A stretch of DNA of 61,379 nt, counting the filler, from an uncultured Myxococcia bacterium (GTDB taxonomy: Bacteria; CAZTWC01), in assembly GCA_964617105.1 (NCBI GenBank). It is 5 parts of 5 records of this genome, joined end to end, with 100 filler letters (N's around TTAATTAATTAA, not from the genome) between each part and the next. Parts side by side here need not be neighbours in the genome. Positions count along the whole stretch, not along the records: positions 49,377 to 61,379 come from CAZTWC010000099.1; 4 more parts are not named here. One strand, given 5' to 3'. A program made the translations under genes and the position numbers. Within the stretch, counting starts at the first letter, position 1; the number at the start of each line of letters is the position of its first letter. Positions 5,801 through 61,379 of this stretch are shown in pieces. The notes beneath the pieces are model-generated. The model was not told where the DNA came from. It did no database searches and saw only the letters and a list, made by a program, of their open reading frames with translations.

Positions 5801-8800
5801 CCTGTGGAGTAGGGGGTGGAGTAAAATCGGTGGTTATCCCCTCAGAAACTCCGGCATCGCTAAAAGAAGTGGCCTGGTTTACTGCATATACGTGGAAATA
5901 ATAGGTGGTATAATGTACCAGATTGAGGTCATTACGTACAACGCTGGTAATCAAACCCGTTGAGGTCAAAGGAACCAGGTCTGCAGCCCCTGAAGTGTTT
6001 GGTTCCGAACTGGTGCCAATAGAATACCTATACTCGGCTATACCGGAATCGGAATCTTGAGATATGCTCCAGGAAGCAGATAATCTGTTACTGGAACCGA
6101 CAAAATTGCTGTCAACAAATACCTCGGGGGTGGTGGGCGGTGTCAAATCAATGGTATAGCCATCGCCAACTCCCGCATCCCCGGCCTGGCCGGCTCCATT
6201 TATTGCCCAAACATGAAAGTAGTAAGTAACACCGTGTTGCAAATTCAACCCCGGGACAGAAACCGACTGAGCCATACCCACAGAAGTTGAAGCAACCACA
6301 TTGCCGGACTGGGGTGAACCAGGTGTAGCCGAGGTACCAATGGAGTATTTGTATTCCACAATTCCTGATTCCGGGTCACTCGAGTTGGACCACTTAGCAT
6401 CAGCCAGATAACTGACATTGATAAATTCGGGTCCATCATCAACCTCTGGCTTGGAGGGAGCGGTTAAATCCACCAGAATACCATTAGAAGAGGAGATACT
6501 GCCAATATTTCCCGCCTTATCAACTCCTCTGACCGAAAAATAGTAATTTCTTCCAGCTTCCAAAGGCGGGTCGAAACTAATGTCAACCGAAGTGGCGTTT
6601 GCATTTGAGGTCCATCCCTTGATATCATGGCTACCTTCTGTGGTTCCTACTGCGTACTGGTAATAATCTAATCCGCTTTGAAGATCTATTATTTGGATCC
6701 ACCAGGCCTTTAGATTATCTGCCTTTGAAGTGTATTGCCCTTCATCTGTAACAACAGTCGGTCCAGGCTCCTGGGTGTCAACTATCATAGGTCCAATTTT
6801 CATCGCCTCTCCGGTAACATCTGCATTACTGACTGCTTTTACCCAAAAATAAACCTGGTCATTATTATTATAATCATTTGACGATAAAGTGATATTGTTG
6901 GTTTGGTTATTGGACTTATAAAAGCCGGGCAAAGGTGGTTCGATAGAGTTTATTTGAAAGGCATACAGATAATTTTTTAGTCCTGATGGTCCGATTTTTT
7001 CCTGCCAATCTATAGTAATATCTTGATTGGCGGTAAAAAAATTGCTCGATATATTAATCTGAAGAATGGTCGGTATAAATGAATCAACATTTACCTGGCA
7101 CTCTTCTGACCAGTTTGAGGAGGAGCCAATAATATCTTGTCCCTTGACCTGGTACTTGTTAATACCGTTATCGCTAATCCCATTTTTAGCAAAAATCACC
7201 TGTTTGAGACTGTAGTCCGATTCAACCCAATTGCCGTTGGCCGGAGAGCCGGAAAAATCACCTGTAAAAATAGCCTGCACACTCTGACCGTCTGGATCCT
7301 GGACATATGAGTATAGGGTCTGCACAGCGGAACTATACCACGTTTCGGTTGAGCAAGGCCACATAACTGTTGGCTTATCTGGCGGAGTGTTAGAAATCAT
7401 CACTTCGGCACTGCCGCTTACCCCGATTTTCCCCTGATAAAGCGGGGTAACAGAAACTTTTATTTTATCCAGATATTTAGTATTGGCTGCCGACAGGGTA
7501 TCACTGGTTATTGGCAAGATGGTATATTGGCCGCCATCGGGACTTTTCTCCCAGGTAATACTGTAAGAATCTGCCTTTTGAGCGCCAGAGTAAAAAACTT
7601 TTAGATCATCGCCTGTAAAAGGTGATGAGGGCGTTATCCACACTAAAGGCGCTATGTAGTTAATTAGGATTCCATTGCTGGTACCCACCTGACTCCACTT
7701 GCCGGCTCGGTTTTTGGCTTTTACAGAAATATAGTATTTGGTTTCATCAGTCATCTGCAGGCTGGTGAGGGAAAAAGATGTATCTGTGGTAGATGTCCAA
7801 TCTTTCAGATTCGTGCGTTGAATATTGTCTGCAATACCGGTTCCTACTGCATACTGGTATTCCTTTACACCGCTCTCTGAATCAGAAGAGGACCAGGAAG
7901 CATTAAGATAGGAATTGTCGTGCTGAATATCACCGTCATCTGTAACTGCCGGGGTTGAGGGACTGGTGGTATCCACCATGATTTTTTGGCTGAGCATCGA
8001 GTTTTCAAGGCCACTATTATTGACTGCCCTTACACAAAAACGGTAATTACCCCCATTGTCAAGGTTAAGAATAAAAGTGTGACTCCGATCACCACTGCTC
8101 TTATTGGTCCAGCCTACCTGGTCGGAACAGGATGTCCATTTACCCAGGGCGACCTGGTATTTATTGATTCCAGAGTGAGGCTCTAAGGCTGCTTCCCACT
8201 CAATTTTCAATCGATCATTTTGTTGAGTATAATAAACCCCACCTTCAGAACCGTGATATTCAGCCCAATCCACGACAAAATCAGCCGGGGCCGAAGCATC
8301 AATACCCAGTTGTCTATCTGCTGACCAGGAACTCCAGCCATCACGGGCATCTTGGGCCGCCACCTTCCAGGTGTATTGAAAGCTGCTATCCGGCAACTCT
8401 GGCCAGGTGAAGCAAGAATTGCCAGTGCCGGCAACCTCACCCCCGTTAACAGTGTTCCCATTGGCATTAAAAACTGCCCATACCGAATCCTGGTCTGGAT
8501 CACTCACCTGAGCACAAAGGGTAGGAGTGTTGTCTGAACTCCAGCCATTCTCGGGAGTTATGGCGGAGGGAGAATTAGGGGGGATATTTGGAAGAGTATA
8601 ACTAACTCTTATTTTGTGTTCACGCATATAGAAACCTCGCAAGGAGGCTATACTTGAATACCATTCACCCTCATCGGGATGCCAACCCAGGCCAAACCAG
8701 TTATCGTTTAAAAGCCCCTGCAGCCTGGTGGCGGCATACCCGCCCAGATCCCTGTAATTAACAGCGGTATAATTGCCAGTGCCGTTTGCCGCTGCCTCGT

Positions 8801-49276: not shown

Positions 49277-49376
49277 NNNNNNNNNNNNNNNNNNNNNNNN
49301 NNNNNNNNNNNNNNNNNNNNTTAATTAATTAANNNNNNNNNNNNNNNNNNNNNNNNNNNNNNNNNNNNNNNNNNNN
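49277..49376. other. Artificial contig-joining spacer
   Basis: 100-nt N run with TTAATTAATTAA. Confidence 0.98.
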
Positions 49377-49734
49377 TCTCTCCCCAGAAAAAGACCGGTA
49401 TATGAAAGTGATAGAAAATGGCATTAGCCGCCCCAAACACGCTATTTGGGTGCATGGCGCTTTTATAGTTATGAAGACTGATATCTTTGGAATTACCCTC
49501 GACAAAAACTGCTGCCAGATCATATTGGCGCAACTTGGCAAGTTCTTTTTTAAATTGCGTTTGTCTTTGAAGCAGGGTGGCTACAAAGTCATCGAGAGTT
49601 TTTCGCTCAAAGGCAACTTTATCTTCCAATCCTTCAAGCGAATAATCGCCAGCAACCAGTTTTTTCCGAACTATTTTGATGCCTCTTGAAAAGGTGAGAG
49701 GCATTTTTTCTCGGGTATCTATAACAATATTCAT
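49377..49734 (-). CDS. ERCC4/XPF-family nuclease (3' truncated)
   Basis: IVIDTREK, LVAGDYS, VAFERKTLDDF (GDxnERKx3D); ATG 49734. Confidence 0.9.
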
Positions 49735-49744
49735 CAGCAAACCT

Positions 49745-50233
49745 TTAGTAGAGGGGAATATCGTCAAAGTCTGTGCCATCAGTTGCAGCATCATTGTGGT
49801 TACTTTTGCCAGAATCTTTCAGTAATTTCTGGAAATAGATATTTTGGTTATCACCATTGTATCTAAGGCTGATCTCCAGTTTTACATCGAGAAGTTCATT
49901 AAGACGGTGGTTAAGGTCAGAGAGTTTTTGCATCTGAACACCAACAATTTTCAGATCGCGTTTCAGCCACTCAAAATTTTTCTTAGTAACTAGCATATTG
50001 CGGTGCCAGACAGTGGAGCCAGTATGTCTTGGCCCCAACACTCTCAACAGCCAGCAGAGCATAGGATTGTTATTTTGAGATGCTTTCAATAATGCTTTTT
50101 CCACAATCACCTGGTATTTACCGGCCGGTAAATTTTCTGATTGGCTGCCTTCTGCTTCTTCGGCCTGCTCGTAGATTTCTTCATATTGTTCTAAATCAAA
50201 CGCCGCAGAATCGTTATTATAAAAATCGCTCAT
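49745..50233 (-). CDS. DUF669 family phage-type single-stranded DNA-binding protein
   Basis: LPAGKYQVIVEKA...NNPML OB-fold pattern and acidic tail DFDDIPLY; ATG 50233 follows GGAGG. Confidence 0.8.
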   Translation of the reverse strand: MSDFYNNDSAAFDLEQYEEIYEQAEEAEGSQSENLPAGKYQVIVEKALLKASQNNNPMLCWLLRVLGPRHTGSTVWHRNMLVTKKNFEWLKRDLKIVGVQMQKLSDLNHRLNELLDVKLEISLRYNGDNQNIYFQKLLKDSGKSNHNDAATDGTDFDDIPLY

Positions 50234-50267
50234 AATTTCCTCCAAAGTTGGTAAAAAGTGTTTTAAG

Positions 50268-51035
50268 TTAGGCTGTCTGGCCCGTATTACCCGATTTGTC
50301 GGCCCCTGGTTCTGGTTGCCTATATTCTCCCTTAAAAGCATCTACCAGGGCGGTATAGTCAAGTTCCATCACCCCGGGCAGCCTATTGGTCCTATCGCCG
50401 GCGGTGTAATCGGGACTGGGCTGGGAGCGAATTATTCGCCGCATCTTCTTGGTGCCGTCAGACAGAGTCTCATACTGGACATCCAGAAACAGGATGATGT
50501 CAGCCATGCCCAGGACGAACTTACGGGGCCGGTCTTTCAAGGAGGGCAACATCTTGTGAACAGTGCCGGTGCGGGTCTGGACCTCCTTGGTATCTGCGTG
50601 GGAGATCATCACCAGGCCATAGGGCAGAATACTAATCTTGGTGATCACTCGCTCGAACTCGCTCTGCACCATGGCGTAAGCCCGACCATAGGGCATATCC
50701 GCTTCGTGCTGGATCTTGTGCTTGTCAAGGATATACTGCCGGCACATCTCCCAGAGGTTGTCCATAGTGTCGATAATAATAGTCTTGAATGAGTGTTTGC
50801 CCTCGGCCATCTCCTTGCAAACGCCCAAAAAAGTCTCCCAGGAGTGGACGTCCACTTTGAACACGCTCAGGGCATTGTGGCCCGACTCTGTGGCAATGAA
50901 CAAGGCGTCGGGAAATTGGCTAGCCAGGGTCGATTTACCCACCTTGGGAAGTCCCCACAGAAGCAGGGAGTAGTCACAGAGATTGTTTTTAACAGTGGTT
51001 TTTTGCTTTGGTAAAAGAGTCATTTTGTCCTCCAT
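50268..51035 (-). CDS. AAA_24 / Sak4-like ATPase (ssDNA annealing)
   Basis: WGLPKVGKST, IATESG, TIIIDT, VMISH, TAGDRT. Confidence 0.85.
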   Translation of the reverse strand: MEDKMTLLPKQKTTVKNNLCDYSLLLWGLPKVGKSTLASQFPDALFIATESGHNALSVFKVDVHSWETFLGVCKEMAEGKHSFKTIIIDTMDNLWEMCRQYILDKHKIQHEADMPYGRAYAMVQSEFERVITKISILPYGLVMISHADTKEVQTRTGTVHKMLPSLKDRPRKFVLGMADIILFLDVQYETLSDGTKKMRRIIRSQPSPDYTAGDRTNRLPGVMELDYTALVDAFKGEYRQPEPGADKSGNTGQTA

Positions 51036-51081
51036 GAAAAAGGGATAAATAATAAAAGATTGCGTTGATTAGGCATAAGAC

Positions 51082-52131
51082 CTAAAAAATAGTCTCTGTA
51101 GATACGGTAGCAGTAGAAGTCAATTCACTGTGAGCCGCCCGGTGCTGAAAGAGATTGGCAATCACGTTCTTACTGCCATTGGATCGGCACAGGGGAAAAT
51201 AAATGCACGGTTTGTTGTATCGGAAGCAGAAGTCGGTATTCCGGTACCAGAGATCATCCCGGCGGGCCGAAAGGAGCCGCTGGGTCACCTGCCACAGGTC
51301 TGATAATGTTGCCTCGATATCGTCGGGGGAGATGAACAGGATCTCTCGGTGGAACAGTTGCCCATCCTCGTATTTGGCCATAAGCCGCTTCTGGAAATCT
51401 TTATCACTCTCCGGTATTTTGCGTTTAGCAGAGGTCTTGCCGGTCTTGGATTTGGCAATCAGTTCCGCCCGCCGCGCCTGGTATTGCTCTTTGGTCTCAC
51501 CCTGGTTTTGCCGCAACATGGCCTTCTGCACCACGTTGTAAATTACGCCAGAGATGGGGATGTTTAATTCCTGAGAGATATAGTGACAGTAAAGGTGGAT
51601 CTGTTTATCCAGCGGCAGCCTCTCGAGATAGTCACCGGAAATTGCGCTGGCACTCTTGTGCTCCAGTAGGAAGTACTCACCAGTGGATTTGTCCTGGATC
51701 ACGCCATCCACCTTGCCGGCCATCTGGAAACTTCGGGATCTGCACCCGGTGGCGGGATTGATAATAGGCCCAGAGAACTCCCGCTCAATTGCAACTACAT
51801 TAAAATTTTCCCGGGGATAGTGGCGGACATAGGCTTTGAACATGGCTCCCACCAGGTGCCAACGCCGCTTCTGTTCCAGGTCGAAAAAGCGATCAGAAAA
51901 ATGGTTATCTATTTCCTTTATAATAGAAGCGATAGCAGCAGCGTCCCGCGGCTTGCCGGCCATATCCAGTTTGTAGAGGCTCTCCAACGCACTATGGAAA
52001 GCATGGCCGATCGATAAACTGCCATCCGATTCAATTGGCACCAACTCCAGGACATACCGCCAGTGATATTTACGCGGACAGTTTAAAAAGTCCCGGGCAC
52101 TGGAAAAGGTAAGTCTAGATCTGGTCATCAA
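51082..52131 (-). CDS. PD-(D/E)XK exonuclease, Cas4/AddB-like with 4-Cys Fe-S staple
   Basis: FLNCPRKY, GHAFH, ERE, GKVDG, EHKS, QIHLY, C-terminal CFRYNKPCIYFPLC. Confidence 0.87.
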   Translation of the reverse strand: MMTRSRLTFSSARDFLNCPRKYHWRYVLELVPIESDGSLSIGHAFHSALESLYKLDMAGKPRDAAAIASIIKEIDNHFSDRFFDLEQKRRWHLVGAMFKAYVRHYPRENFNVVAIEREFSGPIINPATGCRSRSFQMAGKVDGVIQDKSTGEYFLLEHKSASAISGDYLERLPLDKQIHLYCHYISQELNIPISGVIYNVVQKAMLRQNQGETKEQYQARRAELIAKSKTGKTSAKRKIPESDKDFQKRLMAKYEDGQLFHREILFISPDDIEATLSDLWQVTQRLLSARRDDLWYRNTDFCFRYNKPCIYFPLCRSNGSKNVIANLFQHRAAHSELTSTATVSTETIF

Positions 52132-52459
52132 GGCTATCCTCCTTTATTTTACTGTTAGTCTCTTTGCTATCAGTTTCCTTGCTGTCAGGATTTTCTACCA
52201 GGTGAGCCGCCCGCAGCAGGTAGTGGGCCGCCTCCCGCAACTCCTCGGCCAGGTTAACTGGAGCGATCCTGGCCACCCGGATATCATCCCTATCCCACCA
52301 GATCACCCGGCTCAGTTTGCCCAGGCCAAAAGCAATGCAAAAAACCGGACTCTTCCAGGGATAGTCCATCCCCATGATGCGGGCCTGGCGGAAAGACTCA
52401 CTCTCGGCAAAGAGCATTTTTTTAATTTGATCGTCCATAGAATTGTCTCCCCTACTCAT
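52115..52459 (-). CDS. Hypothetical protein
   Basis: ORF overlapping both neighbours in the leftward operon. Confidence 0.55.
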   Translation of the reverse strand: MSRGDNSMDDQIKKMLFAESESFRQARIMGMDYPWKSPVFCIAFGLGKLSRVIWWDRDDIRVARIAPVNLAEELREAAHYLLRAAHLVENPDSKETDSKETNSKIKEDSLDDQI

Positions 52460-52739
52460 TATTATTACCCCTCCATGTTCGGCTCACTTGAAAATTGTTC
52501 TCTGGGAATTGCCGTTGTAATAAATTTGTAAATATTCTGGCAATAGCCTTGCCAATATTTGTTGATGCATCCAGGGTTACCAACCTGCCCTGCTTTTCAA
52601 ATTTAATGGGGTTATCCAACTTCAACTGAGTCGCACCATGAATACCTTCGGCGCCAATTACCGCTAATAGCAGGGTCTCTTTTATCGCATTGACAGAAAG
52701 ACTTTTATCAAACTGATAGGTGTATATCTTGCTTTCCAT
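52452..52739 (-). CDS. Hypothetical protein, first gene of the leftward operon
   Basis: RBS (GAGGGAAG) upstream; 8-nt overlap with the next gene; LLAVIGAEGIHG motif. Confidence 0.7.
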   Translation of the reverse strand: MESKIYTYQFDKSLSVNAIKETLLLAVIGAEGIHGATQLKLDNPIKFEKQGRLVTLDASTNIGKAIARIFTNLLQRQFPENNFQVSRTWRGNNNE

Positions 52740-52784
52740 AAAACTTCCCTCATTAGAATTTGCCGCAATTTCTTTTGCTCTTAT

Positions 52785-52818
52785 TATCTAATACGCAAAG
52801 GAGTTCAAAACCGTCTAA
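52785..52818 (-). promoter_or_regulatory. Conserved bipartite motif, copy L (putative promoter for the element's sigma factor)
   Basis: Minus strand TTAGACGGTT-TTGAACTC-CTTTGCGTATTAGATA, 45 nt upstream of ATG 52739; matches copy R at 58110-58143. Confidence 0.7.
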
Positions 52819-52882
52819 ATTTTTTTCCAGAAATTTCCCAGAGTGTTAAAACCTTGATAACAGGACAAGATTAAATTATGCA

Positions 52883-52911
52883 TTGACAGAACATTTGTTC
52901 GGTATTAAAAT
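52883..52911 (+). promoter_or_regulatory. lexA promoter with an SOS box in the spacer
   Basis: TTGACA (52883-52888)-N17-TAAAAT (52906-52911); GAACATTTGTTC (GAAC-N4-GTTC) at 52889-52900. Confidence 0.85.
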
Positions 52912-52954
52912 TAGGCTTGAATTAACACCATTATTCTGATTGTTGGAGACAAAG

Positions 52955-53614
52955 ATGAAAAGAACAAAACTGGGCGAAGAGGAAGAGCAAACACTGACTG
53001 CTTCCCAGAAAAGAGTTTTCAATACCATTGTCGATCTTTACAAACAATATGGCATGGCCCCTACTGGACGGGAGATCAGCAAAGAACTGGACCTGAAACC
53101 AACCAGTGTCCACGAGCAATTGCTGCGTCTGGAGAGAAAGGGGTATATCAAGCGGAACAAAAATAAGGCCAGATCGATTCAAATATTAAAGACCATTCCC
53201 ATCGAGGCCAGCAGAGGCACTCTTGTTCCAGTGCCAATTATCGGTGAAATTGCTGCTGGTCAACCAATATTTGCCCACGAGAGATTTATCGGAGAGATAT
53301 TTGTTGATTCCCGGGCTGTTCCCAAGGGGAAGTTATTTGCTTTGAAGGTTAAAGGGGACAGCATGATCGGGGCTGGTATCAATCCCGGTGACCTGGTAGT
53401 GGTCAAGCAGCAGCCAGTAGCTGAAAAAGGGGAGCTCGTTGCCGCCCTGATGGGTGATGAAGCCACGGTAAAACGGCTGAAGATACTAACTGACAAGGTG
53501 ATCTTGCAACCGGAAAACCCTGCCCACGATCCAATTGATGTTACCGCCCGGGAAGATTTCCGCATCCTGGGCAAAGTGGTGACCTGGCTCTCACCGGGCG
53601 TGAGCCAGGATTAA
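52955..53614 (+). CDS. lexA: LexA-family transcriptional repressor
   Basis: wHTH (LTASQ...PTGREI...LERKGYI...ARSI), cleavage site IAAG, VKGDSM (Ser), TVKRL (Lys); ATG 52955 follows GGAG. Confidence 0.93.
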   Translation: MKRTKLGEEEEQTLTASQKRVFNTIVDLYKQYGMAPTGREISKELDLKPTSVHEQLLRLERKGYIKRNKNKARSIQILKTIPIEASRGTLVPVPIIGEIAAGQPIFAHERFIGEIFVDSRAVPKGKLFALKVKGDSMIGAGINPGDLVVVKQQPVAEKGELVAALMGDEATVKRLKILTDKVILQPENPAHDPIDVTAREDFRILGKVVTWLSPGVSQD

Positions 53615-53653
53615 CTTCTTTTTTTCAACCCCAGACTGCTAAGGAAGGGCGCC

Positions 53654-56455
53654 ATGGATATATCTGTTCTTAATTCAAGAGGTGTTGAGCGGGATTTGAT
53701 AGAGATATGGCAAGAAGCTGGAATTACAAAGTTGCTTCCCGTTCAAAAAAAGGCTGTATTAGAACATGGACTGCTCGATGGCAGGAATATCGTGGTATCT
53801 GCGCCAACCTCCTCTGGCAAAACTTTTATTGGCGAGATGGCCGCCTTGAGGATGGCGCTCCACAGAAGGACTTTTTACCTGGTTCCCCAAAAAGCCCTGG
53901 CCGAAGAAAAATACGAAGAATTTTGCTCCCGCTACCAGAAACTTGGTGTCAGAGTGGTTATCTCATCCCGGGACAGGAAAGAATTTGAAGAGCAAATATC
54001 GCTTCGCCAGTTTGATCTGGCCATTGTGGTTTTTGAGAAGATGCAGAGTTTGCTGGTCAGTGATCCAACCCTATTAAGGGATGCCGGCCTGGTAGTAATA
54101 GACGAATTGCAGATGATGGGTGATGAGGAGCGGGGGCCAAATCTTGAACTTTTGCTCACCAAAATACTACATAGTCCTGAGCGGCCCCAGGTAATTGGCC
54201 TTTCGGCCGTGCTTGACAGCGGAGAAGATATTGCCCGCTGGATGAATGCTGAGTTCTGCCGTATAACCAGGCGGCCAGTTGAATTGCGCAAAGGGATATT
54301 GCTTGATGGCACTTTTAGATACATTGAGCACAACAGTAAAAAAGAGGGTTCGGTTAATATGGCCCCAGTCTCAACTGGTATGGACGCCTATGATATTATT
54401 GTTCGCCAGGCCAGGATATTTGCCCGGGCTGGTGAGCAGAGCCTGGTATTTTTGCGGTCAAAGAAAAACTCTATCAAAATGGCCAACCGAATGGCCAAAT
54501 ATCCCCTTTCCCCTCTCAATGAAGGGATGCTGCAGGAGTTGTCGATTATTGAGGAGAGTTCCTTGAAAAGTCAACTTCGCAATTGCCTCAAATCAGGGGT
54601 GGCCTTTCACAATGCAGACCTTGATCGGCCCTTGCGGACCTTTGTGGAAAAACATTTTAAAAACGGCAATATCAAGGTGCTGTGCTCTACCACCACATTG
54701 GCCATGGGCCTTAATTTGCCCGCGCAAAATGTTTTAATCGATCCTGTGAAGTATGTCCTGGACAGAAAACTGAAACGCTGGTTTCCCCGCAACCTCGCTG
54801 CCGGCGAATTTGAAAACATTGGTGGCCGGGCCGGCCGCCTGGGCCTGAACCGCTATGGCAATGCCATCCTGGTGGCTACCAGTAAATTTGAGGCCAAACG
54901 ATTCTACCTGAACATCATCAAAGGAGAGCTGGAGGGGATAAAACCATCGCTTAGCAATAATGGGCTGGAAGGTCATGTGCTGAACCTGATTGCTTCGGGG
55001 ATATGCAGCACTATCCAAGAGTTGGAACAAACGCTAATCTGGTCATTCACCGGCATGCTCTATTGGCGTGGAAACGGCCGGGAAACAATTTTCAAAAAAA
55101 AATTACACTACGCTGTCAAACGATGTCTGGATGGTGGGCTAATCAATGTTGACCACCAAAGTTTTGTTCCCACCGATATTGGATACGCCGCCGCGGTGCA
55201 CGGAATATCAATAAACTCGGCAATTGGGCTGGAAGATATCGCCACTGCCAATACTGAAGTTGCTCAATCGGTTTCTACCCTGGAAATACTACTATGGTTA
55301 TGCCAATGCGAGGATGGAAGCCGCATGCCAGTATCACTGTCAAAAAAGGAAATCTCCCGTAAAAACTATCTGCAAATGCTCCAGGGTTTATATGATGTTA
55401 TAAATCCCGAGTCAGCCAGACGGATTAATCAGCGATATCCAGTCAGGCGGCTGTTGACTTACAACGACCACAAGGCAATAAAAAAGGCTATGCTCCTTTG
55501 CGGATGGATGCGAGGTGAAGATATCCGCTCTCTGGAAACCAAATACAGCACCTACTCAGGGGCCATAGTGAATCTAGCCCAGCAGGTCTCCTGGTTGGCA
55601 GATGTATTTTGTGAAATCACCGACATTTGCGATTGGAACCAGGAACTAATCAGTGACAAGATGAAGAAATTGTCCCGCCGGCTCTTTTACGGCCTGCCTG
55701 AAAAATGCATCCCACTAACTCCTTTGACTACAGTTAAAGGGCTGGGCCGTATCCGTATCCAGGCTCTTGTAAACGCCGGGTTCGATAGCATAGAAAAAAT
55801 TGCTCAGGTAGAATCCTTTGACTTGGAGAGGTTCCTAACCAGACCCCTGGCTGAAAATCTGGTTGCTTTTACCCGGGATTTTGTAGGAGATGGATTTAGC
55901 AACACTAAAAAGGTAACAATAGACAAAGGAACCTCTATTGGCAGGAGTGAAAAGGTTCCGCCGAAGATAAAGGACTACACTGTTAGCCATCCCATTGAGC
56001 CGTCACCATCTCCAATGATATCTGAGCAAGATGAAAATTATGGCCAGCAGGTCAACAGTGGTTCAATCCAAAATGAAGTTCGCCTCGAGTTGGTGGGCAC
56101 GATTTGGAAAAACCGCTTTCTGGTCAAACTAAACGGTTCCAACCTCTGGTTTACTGGAGCCAATTTTATCAACTTGTTAAAATTTGCGGCCCAAAGATGC
56201 CTCTACTCTCCCGGCTGGGTAGATGCCGCCTCATTGACCAGTTCCGGCAATTACCACCAGGTGATCCGCCGGTTGCGCAAATCCTTTTCAAAGGACTATG
56301 CCCGTTTACTTATCGAAGGTGATGGCGCCAGGCGATACCGGTTGACAGTAAATCCCCAACAAATCATTTTTCATACCGAAACCATTCTATCCAGTTTGAA
56401 CCAGACCGGCATCAAACATCTTATCAGCGAAGTCATGGCAAAAATGTCAGCCTGA
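53654..56455 (+). CDS. Hel308/Ski2-like SF2 helicase with an extra C-terminal OmpR/PhoB-like winged-helix domain
   Basis: APTSSGKT, DELQ, GLSA, GVAFHNADL, STTTLAMGLNLPA, GRAGR, HhH VKGLGRIRIQAL; after a linker, ...VIRRLRKSF...LIEGDGARRYRL. Confidence 0.85.
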   Translation: MDISVLNSRGVERDLIEIWQEAGITKLLPVQKKAVLEHGLLDGRNIVVSAPTSSGKTFIGEMAALRMALHRRTFYLVPQKALAEEKYEEFCSRYQKLGVRVVISSRDRKEFEEQISLRQFDLAIVVFEKMQSLLVSDPTLLRDAGLVVIDELQMMGDEERGPNLELLLTKILHSPERPQVIGLSAVLDSGEDIARWMNAEFCRITRRPVELRKGILLDGTFRYIEHNSKKEGSVNMAPVSTGMDAYDIIVRQARIFARAGEQSLVFLRSKKNSIKMANRMAKYPLSPLNEGMLQELSIIEESSLKSQLRNCLKSGVAFHNADLDRPLRTFVEKHFKNGNIKVLCSTTTLAMGLNLPAQNVLIDPVKYVLDRKLKRWFPRNLAAGEFENIGGRAGRLGLNRYGNAILVATSKFEAKRFYLNIIKGELEGIKPSLSNNGLEGHVLNLIASGICSTIQELEQTLIWSFTGMLYWRGNGRETIFKKKLHYAVKRCLDGGLINVDHQSFVPTDIGYAAAVHGISINSAIGLEDIATANTEVAQSVSTLEILLWLCQCEDGSRMPVSLSKKEISRKNYLQMLQGLYDVINPESARRINQRYPVRRLLTYNDHKAIKKAMLLCGWMRGEDIRSLETKYSTYSGAIVNLAQQVSWLADVFCEITDICDWNQELISDKMKKLSRRLFYGLPEKCIPLTPLTTVKGLGRIRIQALVNAGFDSIEKIAQVESFDLERFLTRPLAENLVAFTRDFVGDGFSNTKKVTIDKGTSIGRSEKVPPKIKDYTVSHPIEPSPSPMISEQDENYGQQVNSGSIQNEVRLELVGTIWKNRFLVKLNGSNLWFTGANFINLLKFAAQRCLYSPGWVDAASLTSSGNYHQVIRRLRKSFSKDYARLLIEGDGARRYRLTVNPQQIIFHTETILSSLNQTGIKHLISEVMAKMSA

Positions 56456-56628
56456 ACCCTCCATCCGCATTGTTTATCATCAAATCAATTTTCCTTGAAC
56501 ATGGCGGCCGATTCTTCTAATTCGCTCCATCTCTACCACTTTAATCAAGAAGTTCACTAATCACAAAGAGACAAGTGAGCCTGCAGCGGATATATGCCAG
56601 GCCCTACAGCAATAAAAACTCCTTACTG

Positions 56629-56983
56629 AAACTTTGTTAGTACCTCGTTAGGTTGATTTGCCTGCCTTTGCGAAATTTTACATCGATCAATCTTTGATAT
56701 TACTGGCCGGTTAGTACTAACAAAGTTTATTTCCTTGCTGCTCACGGGAAATAGCGTCACCCTAACAATCCTAACAAAGTTTCTGGTTAGTACTTGTTAG
56801 ACCGAATAAGATATTTTCACATAACTCAAACCTTCAACTTGCATTGAGTGAAAGTCAGAGTTTTTTCTAGCTGACGACCCTCCTCCCAAGCATTTTGCCC
56901 CCTTTTTATCTCTTTGTAATCATTGCCAAAATACTGACCACAACAATTGTTAGTCCCTTTGTTAGTACGCGGTTATTCCTAAC
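56629..56983. repeat. Array of 11 GTTAG/CTAAC boxes
   Basis: GTTAG at 56636, 56647, 56710, 56786, 56796, 56949, 56961; CTAAC at 56717, 56762, 56771, 56979; 15-bp inverted repeat 56629-56643/56714-56728. Confidence 0.85.
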
Positions 56984-57055
56984 AATGATTTTTGTTTATA
57001 CCATTTTTTCAGACAGAAGAGGTTAACGGCAAATTCCAATTTAGAGGAGAAGAAA

Positions 57056-57391
57056 ATGGACGGTTCAAAAAAGGAGATAAACATTCAGGATATTCCTGAT
57101 AACTGGCAAAGACTTTTTATTGGTATGCAGCGAATCAACTTTGGCCGCATCGAAGGTCTGGAGATCAAGGGAGGGGAACCGCTATTTGAGCCCCCGCCAA
57201 TAGTTAAAGAGGACTTGGCCCTGGAAAAAGAGGAGTTTACCAGTCACCACCATAACTCAACCGGTTTTGTCTTGAAAAAAATGCAACGCCGCCTGTGGGA
57301 GTGGTGCCAGCAGGCAGGAGATATTACTATTGAAAAAATAACCGTAGCCAATGGCATGCCCATGCATGTCACCATTTGGCGCTCTTTATAA
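57056..57391 (+). CDS. Hypothetical protein preceding the sigma gene
   Basis: Good RBS (GAGGAG); MQRINFGRIEGLEIKGGEP motif. Confidence 0.75.
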   Translation: MDGSKKEINIQDIPDNWQRLFIGMQRINFGRIEGLEIKGGEPLFEPPPIVKEDLALEKEEFTSHHHNSTGFVLKKMQRRLWEWCQQAGDITIEKITVANGMPMHVTIWRSL

Positions 57392-57397
57392 ACAATC

Positions 57398-57591
57398 GCG
57401 GGCTGGAGGTAATCCTGTAAAGGAGCCGCCGCCTGCACAAAAAATTTTATCAACACCAGACAACGGCTGGCTCGAAAAACGGGAGGTCGCTGTGGGTGTC
57501 GCTTGAAAAAGTGCACTTGCAGGACTCCCTATTTTTTTGAGCGGCATCTTCAGCAGTCTTCCGCAGGGCCTGGCCCAACGGAGGACTCGAG
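57398..57591 (+). ncRNA. Putative structured cis-regulatory leader of the sigma gene
   Basis: GTAA-tetraloop hairpin (57413-57424) inside a GCGGGC/GCCTGC stem; long G-U-rich stem 57482-57510/57533-57562; anti-SD AGTCTTCCG complementary to CGGAGGACT. Confidence 0.55.
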
Positions 57592-58113
57592 ATGTCGCGA
57601 AACAACTACAAAGGGATTGATAGTGATATTGTAAAAATCGTAAGAGGTTATGTTAAAAACGTCATAGAAAAAAGATTCTTCCCAGAACATTTTCAAGATG
57701 ATCTAGAGCAAGAATGTATATTTGCAGTTATGGCCAAATTTAAAAAATTTAACCCAAAGGTCGGCTCGAGGAGTTTTTTTATCCGTATGGTGACAAAAAA
57801 TACTGTCATATCTGTTTGGCGTAAAGAAATCTCTTTAAAACAAGGAGCAAAAAATAGACTTATCTCCCTTAACCAGAATTTTGCCAATAGTTCTGAATGC
57901 TTGCTGGATGCCATGCCAGGCAAGGATATTTCTACTCTTTTTCAACTAGAACTCGAAGAAATTCTGCAAAATATTCCCCTTCAAGCATTGGAGGTGATCC
58001 AACTTTCAGTTGATGGTTTTTCCAAGGAAGAGATCGCTAAACGAGTTGGAGTGTCGAGGGCGACTGTATTTAATCGCCTGAAACTCGCCAGGAATTTAAT
58101 AAAAAATAATTAG
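57592..58113 (+). CDS. ECF-like sigma-70 family factor
   Basis: Region 2-like DDLEQE...KFNPKVGSRSFFIRMVTKN and region 4 HTH SKEEIAKRVGVSRATVFNRL; 173 aa; GGAGG RBS. Confidence 0.82.
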   Translation: MSRNNYKGIDSDIVKIVRGYVKNVIEKRFFPEHFQDDLEQECIFAVMAKFKKFNPKVGSRSFFIRMVTKNTVISVWRKEISLKQGAKNRLISLNQNFANSSECLLDAMPGKDISTLFQLELEEILQNIPLQALEVIQLSVDGFSKEEIAKRVGVSRATVFNRLKLARNLIKNN

Positions 58114-58143
58114 ACGGTTCTAGTCTGCTTTGCGTATTAGATA
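58110..58143 (+). promoter_or_regulatory. Conserved bipartite motif, copy R (putative promoter for the element's sigma factor)
   Basis: TTAGACGGTT-CTAGTCTG-CTTTGCGTATTAGATA, overlapping the sigma stop codon, 32 nt upstream of ORF 58176. Confidence 0.7.
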
Positions 58144-58175
58144 GTAGAGGAATATTTTTTTTATAGGGGAAAAAA

Positions 58176-58382
58176 TTGAAAAAGATAGATCAGACTGATT
58201 GTCGAACACTGGAAGAAATCGCCGCTATCCTCGCCAGCGGCTACCTGCGCCTGCTGGCCAAACAAAACCAAAAAATTGTCATTGATCAGCATCCCATACC
58301 GGATTCTAATAAAAACCCGATGTCAACCCAGAAACAACTTGATTCCCCGGAGATGCGGAGCAATGGTCACAGAGCCGGTTAA
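58176..58382 (+). CDS. Small hypothetical protein upstream of DUF2924
   Basis: LEEIAAILASGYLRL helix; first gene of the rightward operon. Confidence 0.6.
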   Translation: MKKIDQTDCRTLEEIAAILASGYLRLLAKQNQKIVIDQHPIPDSNKNPMSTQKQLDSPEMRSNGHRAG

Positions 58383-58416
58383 CTGGCAACAGCAATTGTA
58401 AATTAGGGAGAAATTA

Positions 58417-58956
58417 ATGGCGTCATCACTCGCATTAGTAAAACAAATAGAGGATCTAAAAACCATGACCGCCCGGGAACTGCGCCAAGAGTATATAAAG
58501 GTATTTGGCGAGGAGTCACGGTCTAACCACCGGGAGTTTCTCTGGCGCCGGATAGCCTGGCGACTCCAGGAACTCACCCATGGTGGTTTGTCACAAAGGG
58601 CAAAACTCCGGGCCGGTGAGTTGGCAAACGAGGCAGATCTCCGTATTACGCCTCCGGAGGGTACATTTGAGACTGAAGTCAATGGAAAAAATCAAGGCCA
58701 TCACCATCACAACAACTACAACCAGAGCCCTGCCAAAACCAGCCTGTCCGGTTTGGACCCCAGGTTACCGGCAGTAGGAACAGTGTTAACCCGACACTAC
58801 AAAGGAAAGGTAATAGTAGTGAAAATATTGGATAAGGGATTCGAGTTCGAGGAGCAGGAATACCGCTCCCTGTCCACTGTAGCCAAGGTCGCCACCGGTG
58901 TCAGTTGGAATGGGTACAAGTTTTTTAACCTGCAAAAAAGAGATAAAAGAGACTAA
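58417..58956 (+). CDS. DUF2924 domain protein
   Basis: IAWRLQE..GGLS, PAVGTVLTRHYKG, YRSLSTVAKVATGVSWNGYKFF. Confidence 0.88.
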   Translation: MASSLALVKQIEDLKTMTARELRQEYIKVFGEESRSNHREFLWRRIAWRLQELTHGGLSQRAKLRAGELANEADLRITPPEGTFETEVNGKNQGHHHHNNYNQSPAKTSLSGLDPRLPAVGTVLTRHYKGKVIVVKILDKGFEFEEQEYRSLSTVAKVATGVSWNGYKFFNLQKRDKRD

Positions 58957-58967
58957 GAAATATTTTG

Positions 58968-60965
58968 ATGAGGACCAGGAAAGAACACAACCGAAAAACG
59001 AACCGGCAAGAAAAAGAGGTACTTCGATGCGCCATCTACGTCCGCAAGAGCACCACCGAGAACCTGGATATGGACTTCAACTCCCTGGATGCCCAACGGG
59101 AGGCCTGCGAGGCTTATATCAAGAGCCAGAGGCACGAAGGTTGGGAACTGGTACCCGAAGAATATTCAGACGGTGGATTCTCTGGTGGTAACCTGGAGCG
59201 ACCAGGACTGAAGAAACTCCTTGTCCACATTGAGGCTGGTCTGATCGACATTATTGTCTGTTACAAACTGGATCGTCTTTCCCGCTCACTGCTGGACTTC
59301 GCTCAACTTATCAGACTATTTGAGGGTTATGGTGTCTCCTTTGTCAGCGTAACCCAGGCGTTTTCCACTAAAACATCCATGGGGCGCTTAACCCTGAATA
59401 TGCTTCTATCCTTTGCCCAATTCGAGCGGGACCTAATCTCGGAGAGAACGTCAGACAAGATGAGCGCCGCCCGTCGCAAAGGTAAATGGACCGGTGGCAC
59501 CCCGGTTTTGGGTTACGACGTGGCTAAAGAGGGCGGTAAAATCATTGTAAATTCAGAGGAGGCCAGGCAGGTCAGAGCAATTTATGATCTGTATTTATCC
59601 CATAGATCACTTACCCAGACCGCCAGGGAACTAAATCAGCGCGGTTGGTGCACCAAGACCTGGAGAACCAAAAAGGGTCACATCCACCAGGGGAAAAGAT
59701 TCAGCAAAACTAACCTGTCAGCCTTGCTGAGCAACGTTCTTTACGTTGGCAAGATCTCTCTGCGGGGAGAGGTTTTTGAGGGTGAGCACCAGGCTATCAT
59801 TGACGAGGAGGTTTTCGAGCAGGTGCAGGCAGTTTTGAAGTTGAACCGCACCTGGGGTTGGAGCAGTGATTGTGGCTATGGCAATAATGGTGACTGTGAC
59901 AGTGGTGGCGGCAGTGGCAGCCAAAAAAATGGTCCCCAGCCTCGACCCAGACCCAGAATCAAACATGGTGCGCTACTTGGCGGTTTGCTCTTCTGCCAGA
60001 GTTGCAACACTGCCATGACCCTCAGTTCAACTACCAAGAAAAATAAGCGCTACCGTTATTATGTCTGCACCCGGGCGCAAAAAGAGGGTTACCAGAGTTG
60101 CTCCTCTCCAACTAAATCGCTGCCGGCAGCGGATATCGAAAAATTTGTAGTCAACAAAATTGGGGAGATCGGCAAGAACAAAGATTTGCTAAAGGAGACC
60201 TGTCATCAGGCTAAGCAGGAACAAAAACGGAGGATTACTCACCTGGAGAAAGAGGCTCAGTATCTGGAAAAGGATCTCCGGCGAGTTAATCGAAAAATGG
60301 GAGCAATGGCTGGGAAAATTGACAACAGTAGCTGCAGTGGCGGCATTAGCAACAATGGCGGCGGTGACGGCTGTGGCGGCGGTGACGGCTGTGGCGGCGG
60401 TGCAACCAGGTATAGCAGTGGCAACATGAGCAGGGGGCGCGATGATAATATTCCTGGTAATTCTGAGTCTATAACTGTAGCGGTGCCAACAACGACTGCG
60501 GTGTCTCACCTGACTGATCTGCAAGAGCAAATGGCAAATTTACAGCGCCAGCGGTTAGAAATCCAGGAGCAACTGCAACACCTGCGGGCAGGGGAGAAGA
60601 AAATAAATCCAAATGCCCTCGGAAAGGCCTTGCGACAGTTCACACCAATTTGGGATGTTCTAACGCCCCGAGAACGAAGTCGGCTCCTGAATTTACTGAT
60701 AACCAGAGTCAGTTTTGATGGTCAGTCTAAAAAAATATTTATCACCTTCAGTCCAGAGGGGATGGAACTTTTTGCAAATGCAAATACAAATGCAAATGTT
60801 AATTCTAATACCAATGCTGCTGCTAATGCTAATCCCAATATAGGTACTGCTGCAAATACAAATACAAATACAAATGACACCGCCGTTAATAAGTCCAAAA
60901 TAAAAACAGGGGATAACAGGAACAGGAACAGGAGGAACAACAGTGGGACAAACAGTGGAACATAA
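58968..60965 (+). CDS. Large serine recombinase (resolvase + recombinase + Zn-ribbon domains)
   Basis: CAIYVRKST (catalytic Ser), DGGFSGGNLERPGL, KLDRLSRS, FAQFERDLISER, LLFCQSC...YYVC, coiled coil. Confidence 0.95.
   Translation: MRTRKEHNRKTNRQEKEVLRCAIYVRKSTTENLDMDFNSLDAQREACEAYIKSQRHEGWELVPEEYSDGGFSGGNLERPGLKKLLVHIEAGLIDIIVCYKLDRLSRSLLDFAQLIRLFEGYGVSFVSVTQAFSTKTSMGRLTLNMLLSFAQFERDLISERTSDKMSAARRKGKWTGGTPVLGYDVAKEGGKIIVNSEEARQVRAIYDLYLSHRSLTQTARELNQRGWCTKTWRTKKGHIHQGKRFSKTNLSALLSNVLYVGKISLRGEVFEGEHQAIIDEEVFEQVQAVLKLNRTWGWSSDCGYGNNGDCDSGGGSGSQKNGPQPRPRPRIKHGALLGGLLFCQSCNTAMTLSSTTKKNKRYRYYVCTRAQKEGYQSCSSPTKSLPAADIEKFVVNKIGEIGKNKDLLKETCHQAKQEQKRRITHLEKEAQYLEKDLRRVNRKMGAMAGKIDNSSCSGGISNNGGGDGCGGGDGCGGGATRYSSGNMSRGRDDNIPGNSESITVAVPTTTAVSHLTDLQEQMANLQRQRLEIQEQLQHLRAGEKKINPNALGKALRQFTPIWDVLTPRERSRLLNLLITRVSFDGQSKKIFITFSPEGMELFANANTNANVNSNTNAAANANPNIGTAANTNTNTNDTAVNKSKIKTGDNRNRNRRNNSGTNSGT
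60357..60402 (+). repeat. 18-bp tandem repeat inside the recombinase (about 2.5 copies)
   Basis: GGCGGCGGTGACGGCTGT x2 plus GGCGGCGGTG, encoding GGGDGC repeats. Confidence 0.9.
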
Positions 60966-61379
60966 CGGATACCAGGGAGTTCATGACAACAATGAAGAGC
61001 GTGAAGACCTTAAAGATCATCAGCATCACCCCCATCCCCAAGAAGTTTCTCCTGAAATAAATCCGGAGTTCACCATTGCCTGCGAAATCGACTTTGAAAC
61101 CGGTCGTAACGGGAGGAAAAAGATCGAGGATAACGATGCCAAGGCCCAAAAAATGGTTGCCGCCAGCCGTGGTCGCATCCCCCGGATCTCCAAACTCATG
61201 GCCCTGGCAATTCACTTCGAGAGCCTGATAAAAGGCCAGGAGGTTCAGGACTATGCCGATATCGCCAGGTTGGGCGGAGTGTCCCGGGCCAGGGTAACTC
61301 AGATCATGAACCTGCTCTTACTGGCGCCGGATATCCAGGAAAAACTGTTGTTTCTACCTCGAGTCTATAAGGGCAGGGA
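60943..61379 (+). CDS. Recombinase-associated HTH protein (ParB-HTH-like), 3' truncated
   Basis: Not in ORF track. GTG 60943 follows GGAGG; reads ...GRIPRISKLMALAIHFESLIKGQEVQDYADIARLGGVSRARVTQIMNLLLLAPDIQEKLLFLP... Confidence 0.75.
   Translation, partial: MGQTVEHNGYQGVHDNNEEREDLKDHQHHPHPQEVSPEINPEFTIACEIDFETGRNGRKKIEDNDAKAQKMVAASRGRIPRISKLMALAIHFESLIKGQEVQDYADIARLGGVSRARVTQIMNLLLLAPDIQEKLLFLPRVYKGR

Follow-up and report, generated by a model that had tools for sequence, protein, structure and literature searches.

In the PBSX (Xre/Xpf), C. perfringens UviA and pyocin (PrtR/PrtN) systems, a repressor controls a dedicated alternative sigma factor or activator after DNA damage. Here we analyse a 61,379-nt stretch of DNA from an uncultured Myxococcia bacterium (the window, by which we mean the whole stretch), whose last 12 kb hold a phage-like element with a LexA-like repressor gene, a gene for an extracytoplasmic function (ECF)-like sigma factor and two inverted copies of a 34-nt bipartite motif. 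We propose, with a probability of roughly 0.7, that the motif is the cognate promoter of this sigma factor. The arrangement, proposed here from sequence, resembles the cascades above in that a self-cleaving or SOS-linked repressor stands over a dedicated transcription factor. It differs from them in that the sigma factor is ECF-like and belongs to a separate family, and in that its predicted targets within the 12 kb are recombination and integration genes, not late or lysis genes.

Phage-encoded ECF-type sigma factors are described for phiEco32, 7-11 and Kuravirus, where they redirect the host RNA polymerase and stand as outliers among the ECF groups (relevant passages of PMC7881722). As in the phiEco32-type phages of those passages, the sigma factor here would be a phage-encoded two-domain protein acting on promoters with a −35/−10 pattern of their own. 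The phages described there are lytic podophages that use the sigma factor for a temporal programme, whereas the present element is temperate or integrative and keeps its sigma gene beside a LexA-like repressor. It is further set apart by its predicted targets, a recombination module and an integration module, and by a putative promoter that overlaps the end of the sigma gene itself. For Wolbachia phage WO, the description of the replication module lists a 'sigma-70 subunit' and leaves its targets unnamed (module description in Kent et al. 2011, PMC3173496), and a Cappable-seq paper on Wolbachia remarks in passing that unidentified ECF sigma factors may exist (PMC12558409). We found in the literature no published promoter or target for the WO sigma factor, no promoter for the sigma family analysed here, and no account of modules that combine DUF2924, serine recombinase and sigma genes.

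Two copies of an asymmetric motif face two operons

Both motif copies were re-found at the coordinates and on the strands given by the first-pass annotation of this DNA. Copy L (52785–52818, minus strand) aims leftward into an operon of orf95, exonuclease and Sak4 genes, and copy R (58110–58143, plus strand) aims rightward into an operon of orf68, DUF2924 and serine recombinase genes. Each consists of two blocks, the proposed −35 and −10 elements, on either side of a non-conserved 8-nt spacer. The block identity reported earlier holds, with 10/10 and 16/16 block positions equal and 3/8 in the spacer (29 of 34 positions in all), and the flanks agree at near-chance levels (12/25 positions upstream and 9/32 downstream). 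The distances to the first open reading frames (ORFs) are likewise as noted before, 45 nt for copy L (52740–52784, minus-strand ATG at 52739) and 32 nt for copy R (58144–58175, TTG at 58176), and each of these ORFs is preceded by a ribosome-binding site. The stop codon of the sigma gene (58111–58113) does sit within copy R. The same annotation called the two flanking units effector operons, a label that we replace, as they are a phage recombination module and an integration module.

A search of the window that allowed up to 3 mismatches found the motif pattern at just these 2 places, and no match arose in 100 dinucleotide-preserving shuffles. Relaxing the pattern to 9 mismatches of 26 added six places, which is the chance level (4–18 in 10 shuffles), and exact-pattern scans of genome, viral and metagenome contig collections gave no match. 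That there are only two copies in the available DNA would suit a functionless remnant of a recent duplication, or a chance resemblance. We give such an explanation next to no credence, as the shuffles yield no match, a duplication would not leave two perfect blocks around a diverged centre, and the pattern is found again, at the same two places in the gene order, in elements with only 25–45% protein identity.

The motif has no dyad symmetry beyond that of shuffled sequence (233 and 490 of 500 shuffles reached its best register), and its two blocks are unlike each other, with neither a direct nor an inverted half-site pattern. Since dyad symmetry is lacking, the motif resembles neither the operator of a dimeric repressor nor a recombinase site. 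A housekeeping sigma-70 criterion (at least 9/12 hexamer matches, 16–18 nt spacing), applied across 49378–61379, called neither copy on its own strand. The sole call that overlaps a copy, at 52760–52787 on the plus strand, points in the opposite direction and is at chance level. Two other identities for the motif were considered. A sigma-54-type promoter was set aside on visual inspection, the G-G and G-C pairs of the motif being wrongly spaced for one, and a LexA or SOS operator was ruled out because the motif is not palindromic and the lexA-like gene has a separate palindrome of its own.

The element encodes a divergent ECF-like sigma factor

The gene that ends in copy R (57592–58113, plus strand) encodes a 173-aa ECF-like sigma factor with sigma-2 and sigma-4 domains. 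The protein matches the Pfam families Sigma70_r2, r4_2 and Sigma70_ECF and scores 57.5 bits against TIGR02937, whose cut-off is 42.9, and a profile of its family matches the solved SigW, SigE and SigH over their full length. The AlphaFold2 model (mean predicted local distance difference test score, pLDDT, 84.9) has two helical domains joined by a disordered linker, and its best Foldseek matches are ECF sigma factors in RNA polymerase initiation complexes. Members of the family are proteins of 170–200 aa with a conserved N-terminus.

Database searches found no close relatives of the sigma factor or of the helicase encoded in the same element. The closest match to the sigma factor among 1.8 billion representative proteins is 31% identical, a word-indexed protein search returned only the protein itself, on 3 contigs, and tblastn against 50,697 phage records gave no relative. 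Because no close relatives were found, we used distant relatives for footprinting.

Typical ECF promoters combine an AAC-containing −35 element with a CGT-containing −10 element. If the motif is the promoter of this sigma factor, the sigma-4 domain would contact block 1 as the −35 element (core G-A-C) and sigma-2 would contact block 2 as the −10 element (core C-G-T-A), leaving the 8 variable bases as an uncontacted part of the spacer. The arrangement resembles canonical bacterial ECF regulons such as those of SigW, SigE and SigH in having a two-domain sigma factor and a putative bipartite promoter of fixed spacing, and the C-G-T-A in its −10 block is like the CGT type of ECF promoters. It differs from those regulons in its −35 core, which is G-A-C or G-T-C, in having no recognisable anti-sigma factor and no autoregulatory copy upstream of the sigma gene, and in residing on a mobile element.

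Versions of the motif recur at the same two gene positions in part of a phage family

A first sigma profile (A1) proved too diverse for a locus search, and we therefore used a subset of 10 sequences (A2). The A2 profile found 39 viral loci in IMG/VR and 80 loci in named genomes, 119 phage or prophage loci in all. Grouping these loci and the window at an identity of at least 80% gave 58 groups. The named hosts include Rickettsiales, Holosporaceae, Magnetococcales, Micavibrio, Kiloniella, Bartonella, Planctomycetota, Desulfobacterota and Acidobacteriota. Using tblastn with the window's proteins, we found that the pair of orf111 and sigma genes is conserved in 23 non-redundant groups of loci, the orf111 homologue lying about 200 nt upstream of sigma.

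In 57 representatives, the gene first recognised downstream of sigma is most often an orf95 homologue (26), with an exonuclease gene in 3 and a Sak4 gene in 2. DUF2924 or orf68 comes first in only 2, the window and L032, and nothing was detected in the remaining 24. Of 24 loci examined at the end of the sigma gene, 14 (10 of 18 non-redundant groups) have a G-[A/T/G]-C triplet followed after 18 nt by GTA at the stop codon or across it; by our own arithmetic, such an arrangement is expected by chance in about 7% of 120-nt stretches. When the sigma-stop region was compared with the rest of its locus, the best ungapped 36-nt match had at least 27 identities for 11 of the 57 representatives and for 4 of 171 control windows. 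A second copy is thus demonstrable in part of the family, within the DNA compared.

With no score threshold imposed, 14 of the 29 DUF2924-bearing representatives have their best match on the DUF2924 strand and no more than 600 nt before that gene, where chance would give about 0.025 per locus (binomial P about 2e-15). In these 14 loci the copy stands 113–530 nt upstream of DUF2924. In the window and L032, the sigma-adjacent region is itself directly upstream of DUF2924. Relatives have versions of the signal that differ in sequence from lineage to lineage and share one geometry, with one copy at the sigma stop codon, heading the orf95/Sak4 module from a distance of 36–254 nt before the orf95 homologue, and a second copy heading an operon of small ORFs, DUF2924 and serine recombinase. 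ORFs resembling orf68 follow the DUF2924-facing copy in L008, L017 and L037.

Further copies and repeats were seen in individual loci. The L088 locus has tandem motif copies 170 nt apart (L088:1843 and L088:2012), both upstream of the orf95 homologue, and L077 has a 35/36 direct repeat of the sigma 3′ end with the −35 block (L077:5312 and L077:5565, 253 nt apart), which looks like a local duplication. In L021 and L097, sigma is followed 4.3 kb downstream by another copy (L021:11793, L097:12939), and in L021 an ORF of 420 aa starts 415 nt further on. Because of this further copy, the regulon in the L021/L097 lineage may exceed the two operons of the window. One group of 19 loci, the L008 group (for example L051, L060, L072 and L082), shares 80% identity or more over 1.5 kb or more, and its assemblies bear the names of quite different bacteria: Bartonella, Kiloniella and Amylibacter, and metagenome-assembled genomes of Cellvibrionaceae and Anaplasmataceae. 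The L008 type could be a broad-host-range element, a product of mis-binning or a contaminant.

The family profile also finds Wolbachia phage WO (L024–L031, L035, L036 and L038; L024 is 96% identical to a WOVitA record), and there the sigma gene is followed by a Sak4-like gene, annotated AAA_24, of a kind that the window's element also has. The WO sigma factor is only about 20–25% identical to that of the window, and its motif differs in sequence. A tentative pair of copies exists in this AT-rich DNA, with a bipartite 28/36 match, inverted and upstream of sigma, 1.15 kb from the sigma-stop copy in L024 and 1.3 kb in L031. The copies in L024 are at 7277–7313 (minus strand) and 8465–8501 (plus strand), and likewise in L031. 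One of them heads the AAA_24 gene, and the other heads a leftward ORF of 156 aa whose N-terminus is RuvC-like by eye.

The two copies of an element change in concert

We aligned 22 sites from 11 elements and found that all share one fixed geometry in a single register. The −35 and −10 blocks of the two copies in one element agree with an identity of 0.86 and 0.85, respectively, and their spacers with 0.41; between elements, the corresponding values fall to 0.57 (−35 block), 0.53 (−10 block) and 0.27 (spacer). The sites were chosen as best matches anchored on triplets, so that the triplet columns are fixed by construction, although the central dip in identity is not a product of this anchoring. 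Both sites of an element thus change specificity together, as expected for a factor that the element encodes and that acts in trans.

The claim that the motif is the cognate promoter of the sigma factor, first made in the first-pass annotation, gains support from the ECF-like nature of that protein, the asymmetry of the motif, the operons downstream of it, its geometry across the family and the concerted evolution of its blocks, which together argue for the assignment at the strength given above. Several points weigh against it, to which the fixed triplet columns also belong. The likeness to ECF −35/−10 promoters pointed out earlier is partial: the −10 block has CGTA, and the −35 block has GAC (GTC in some relatives) in place of the AAC typical of ECF promoters. 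The best match to the sigma-stop region scores 24 or less in 40 of the 57 representatives, which is to say that these have no detectable second copy in the DNA compared, and 13 of the 29 DUF2924-bearing loci, besides the window and L032, have no best match facing DUF2924. The window has no motif copy upstream of the sigma gene at up to 9/26 mismatches. A gap of 600 nt with a repeat array parts the helicase gene from orf111 and sigma, and the sigma gene may accordingly have a separate control. Finally, the dependence of the motif on this sigma factor is something that we infer from its setting, and the concerted change of the two copies fits another element-encoded DNA-binding protein, such as orf111, equally well.

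This last point raises a different explanation, in which the motif is bound by orf111, the 68-aa orf68 protein or the DUF2924 protein, which would activate or repress the two operons together with a host sigma factor, the neighbouring sigma gene being incidental. The concerted change needs no more than a specificity factor encoded by the element, and orf111 is linked to the motif as tightly as sigma is, in the same 23 non-redundant groups, and belongs to no known family. We nevertheless consider this explanation unlikely. The two blocks are unlike each other and form no direct or inverted half-sites; the fixed distance of about two helical turns around an unconstrained centre is the pattern of −35/−10 recognition; a dedicated sigma factor is encoded right at the site, often overlapping it; and the sigma-70 scan at the 9/12 threshold misses the motif on its own strand.

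The orf111 gene (57056–57391, plus strand), the conserved partner directly upstream of the sigma gene, encodes a protein without a Pfam, PHROG or NCBIfam match. Its alignment (A3) holds 22 sequences, the window's included, and its neighbours in the Atlas, like those of orf95, are unnamed, mostly viral clusters. The predicted complex of the sigma factor with orf111 scored 0.00 and 0.00, which speaks neither for nor against binding. No anti-sigma factor could be recognised in the element.

Orientation of the segment between the copies

The first-pass annotation had offered, as an alternative to a promoter, that the copies bound an invertible segment of lexA-like, helicase and sigma genes. On this account, they would be the sites of a programmed and reversible inversion of 52819–58109 by the serine recombinases of the element. 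The copies are inverted and flank a discrete cassette, two serine recombinase genes adjoin copy R, and the gene order of the window equals that of the relatives L047 and L103 with the cassette flipped. In those two loci, one copy heads the DUF2924 and recombinase genes, which run leftward, and at the other end orf111 and sigma lead rightward into the copy that heads orf95 and Sak4; the inverted copies are separated by 4.4 kb in L047 and 3.8 kb in L103. The break in synteny between these loci and the window falls exactly at the motif copies. Adjacency of sigma to DUF2924 is moreover rare, being found in 2 of 33 classifiable representatives. In relatives, the sigma gene adjoins the orf95 copy and the repressor side adjoins the DUF2924 copy. 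In the L008 group the LexA-like gene is divergent from a motif copy as it is in the window, but that copy heads DUF2924 and not orf95.

The properties of the sites themselves do not suit a programmed switch. As the motif lacks dyad symmetry, there are no inverted half-sites around a crossover, and conservation is lowest at the centre, the place of cutting for a serine recombinase (3/8 in the window, 0.41 family-wide). Most relatives have their copies in direct orientation, so that recombination between them would remove the recombinase and sigma genes. Direct pairs occur in L015, L048, L051, L108, L114 and L116 and inverted pairs in L047 and L103, and of 29 loci 23 carry DUF2924 on the same strand as sigma and 6 on the other strand. 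In contigs of four sequencing runs from two studies, only the window orientation is seen, in a comparison where minority forms may be hidden. Copy L is bridged by Logan contigs spanning 51786–52950 in runs X1 and X2, copy R by contigs spanning 57174–58175 (X1 and X2) and 57790–58478 (X6), and no strand-changing joint is listed among the contigs of the four runs. We therefore regard reversible inversion by the serine recombinases as highly improbable, and an active inversion switch of any kind as scarcely less so: asymmetric sites, a variable centre, direct copies in relatives and a single contig orientation speak against it. What stands of the earlier alternative is the observation that the window order is the L047/L103 order with its middle flipped.

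We give about even odds to a history in which the segment between the inverted copies flipped once in the lineage of the window, by recombination between the copies. A more elaborate version, in which the promoter copies double as crossover sites and the cassette of lexA-like, helicase, orf111 and sigma genes flips between two wirings through Sak4 and the exonuclease or through the serine recombinases, appears to us quite improbable. Just as doubtful is its regulatory corollary, that in the wiring as assembled the sigma gene and read-through from the repressor operon would feed the integration operon, and that in the flipped wiring they would feed the recombination module, as in relatives.

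Gene content of the element

A run of N's with a central six-frame stop linker at 49277–49377 marks the window as joined contigs. The run sets the element (49378–61379) off as a contig of its own, about 12 kb long and cut at both ends, with no physical linkage to the preceding contig with rpoD and dnaG; the database entry for the sigma protein likewise places it on a contig of 12,003 bases. The RpoD gene of that preceding contig reaches no more than 57% identity with genomes whose names are of Desulfobacterota, Bdellovibrionota or Myxococcota type. The element is present in eight marine or seawater metagenome runs of two studies. It is the early region, for recombination and integration, of a temperate phage or similar integrative element. 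An Rfam scan of the 12-kb contig gave no match at E values up to 0.1.

The module behind copy L lies on the minus strand. Its first gene is orf95 (52452–52739; 95 aa), whose homologue is the commonest gene right after sigma in relatives, and it is followed by orf114 (52115–52459; 114 aa, no assigned function), a PD-(D/E)XK exonuclease gene (51082–52131), a gene for an AAA_24/Sak4-like single-strand annealing protein (50268–51035), a gene for a DUF669 protein resembling single-stranded DNA-binding proteins (49745–50341) and an ERCC4-domain nuclease gene that is cut by the contig start (49378–49794). The module behind copy R lies on the plus strand and opens with orf68 (58176–58382), the small conserved first gene of the integration operon, followed by the gene for the DUF2924 protein (58417–58956), a large serine recombinase gene with Resolvase, Recombinase and Zn_ribbon_recom domains (58965–60965) and a second recombinase-like ORF that is cut by the end of the contig and window (60943–61377). 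Within the serine recombinase gene, in its 3′ part, there is a tract of hexanucleotide-based repeats (60773–60876), and the length of this tract differs among runs, with one 6-nt insertion and joints that skip 55 and 85 nt.

Between the two copies, all on the plus strand, are the gene for the LexA-like repressor (52940–53614; LexA_DNA_bind and Peptidase_S24), whose true start is probably the ATG at 52955, preceded by GGAGA, the gene for a Hel308-like DEAD/DEAH helicase of 933 aa (53654–56455), and the orf111 and sigma genes. The gap of 600 nt upstream of the latter two contains a repeat array (56628–57002) of about 8 copies of a 10–12-nt unit in both orientations, including a perfect 12-nt palindrome, which could be an operator array or an origin. 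The array is not general in the family: of 23 groups, the window and L091 reach a top 8-mer count of 5, two loci reach 4 and the other 19 stay at 3 or below, with controls mostly at 2–3. Similar repeat arrays were seen in a few relatives, L091, L079 and L042.

A proposed circuit from repressor to sigma factor

A sigma-70-type promoter, strong by consensus (11/12 positions), lies at 52883–52911 on the plus strand in front of the lexA-like operon. It is the only strong promoter of this type on the plus strand of the central segment, and its spacer holds a perfect 12-nt palindrome (5-nt arms, 2-nt gap) that is a probable operator. The LexA-like genes of L008, L014 and L045, like that of the window, each have an upstream palindrome of their own, and the sequences of these palindromes differ, which suggests element-specific repressors and not the SOS box of the host. 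Contigs in runs X1 and X6 match the window up to 52935, just before the start of the lexA-like gene, and then diverge; the break suggests a co-occurring variant with a different repressor-side module.

The LexA-like, presumably self-cleaving repressor would shut its own sigma-70-type promoter through the spacer palindrome, and once it is inactivated, the lexA-like, Hel308, orf111 and sigma genes would be transcribed. We treat these four genes as one unit because the promoter at 52883–52911 is the sole strong one on the plus strand and a scan for intrinsic terminators called none on that strand from helicase to sigma. The cognate promoter of the sigma factor would probably stand downstream of the LexA-like repressor in the order of control. 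The sigma factor would bind both motif copies and set the place where transcription starts, firing copy L for the recombination–replication module and copy R for the integration–excision module, so that the two modules would come on together. With no copy in front of the sigma gene, the window lacks the autoregulation that ECF sigma factors usually have. In relatives with the direct layout, the DUF2924-facing copy, upstream of sigma and on the same strand, could serve autoregulation by read-through. None of the sequencing runs listed for the element is an RNA run, and we infer the LexA-like control of sigma expression from the layout of the operon.

Implications

That phages encode sigma factors with promoters of their own is not a new principle. 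The addition made here is a concrete and testable promoter model for an uncharacterised sigma family, whose members occur in temperate phages and prophages of Alphaproteobacteria, Planctomycetota, Desulfobacterota and other groups and seem to extend to Wolbachia phage WO. Sigma factor and promoter are predicted to travel as a linked cassette, since the promoter runs across the end of the gene, and the mutually divergent pairs of sigma factor and promoter are possible orthogonal parts for expression.

The junctions with L047 and L103 bear on how such phages evolve. If the single flip holds, promoters would act as breakpoints in phage mosaicism, and if the copies do double as crossover sites, the phage sigma promoters would also be module-shuffling sites across the phage family. 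For the life cycle of these elements, the model predicts that one element-encoded sigma factor turns on the genes for integration and excision jointly with those for recombination and replication.

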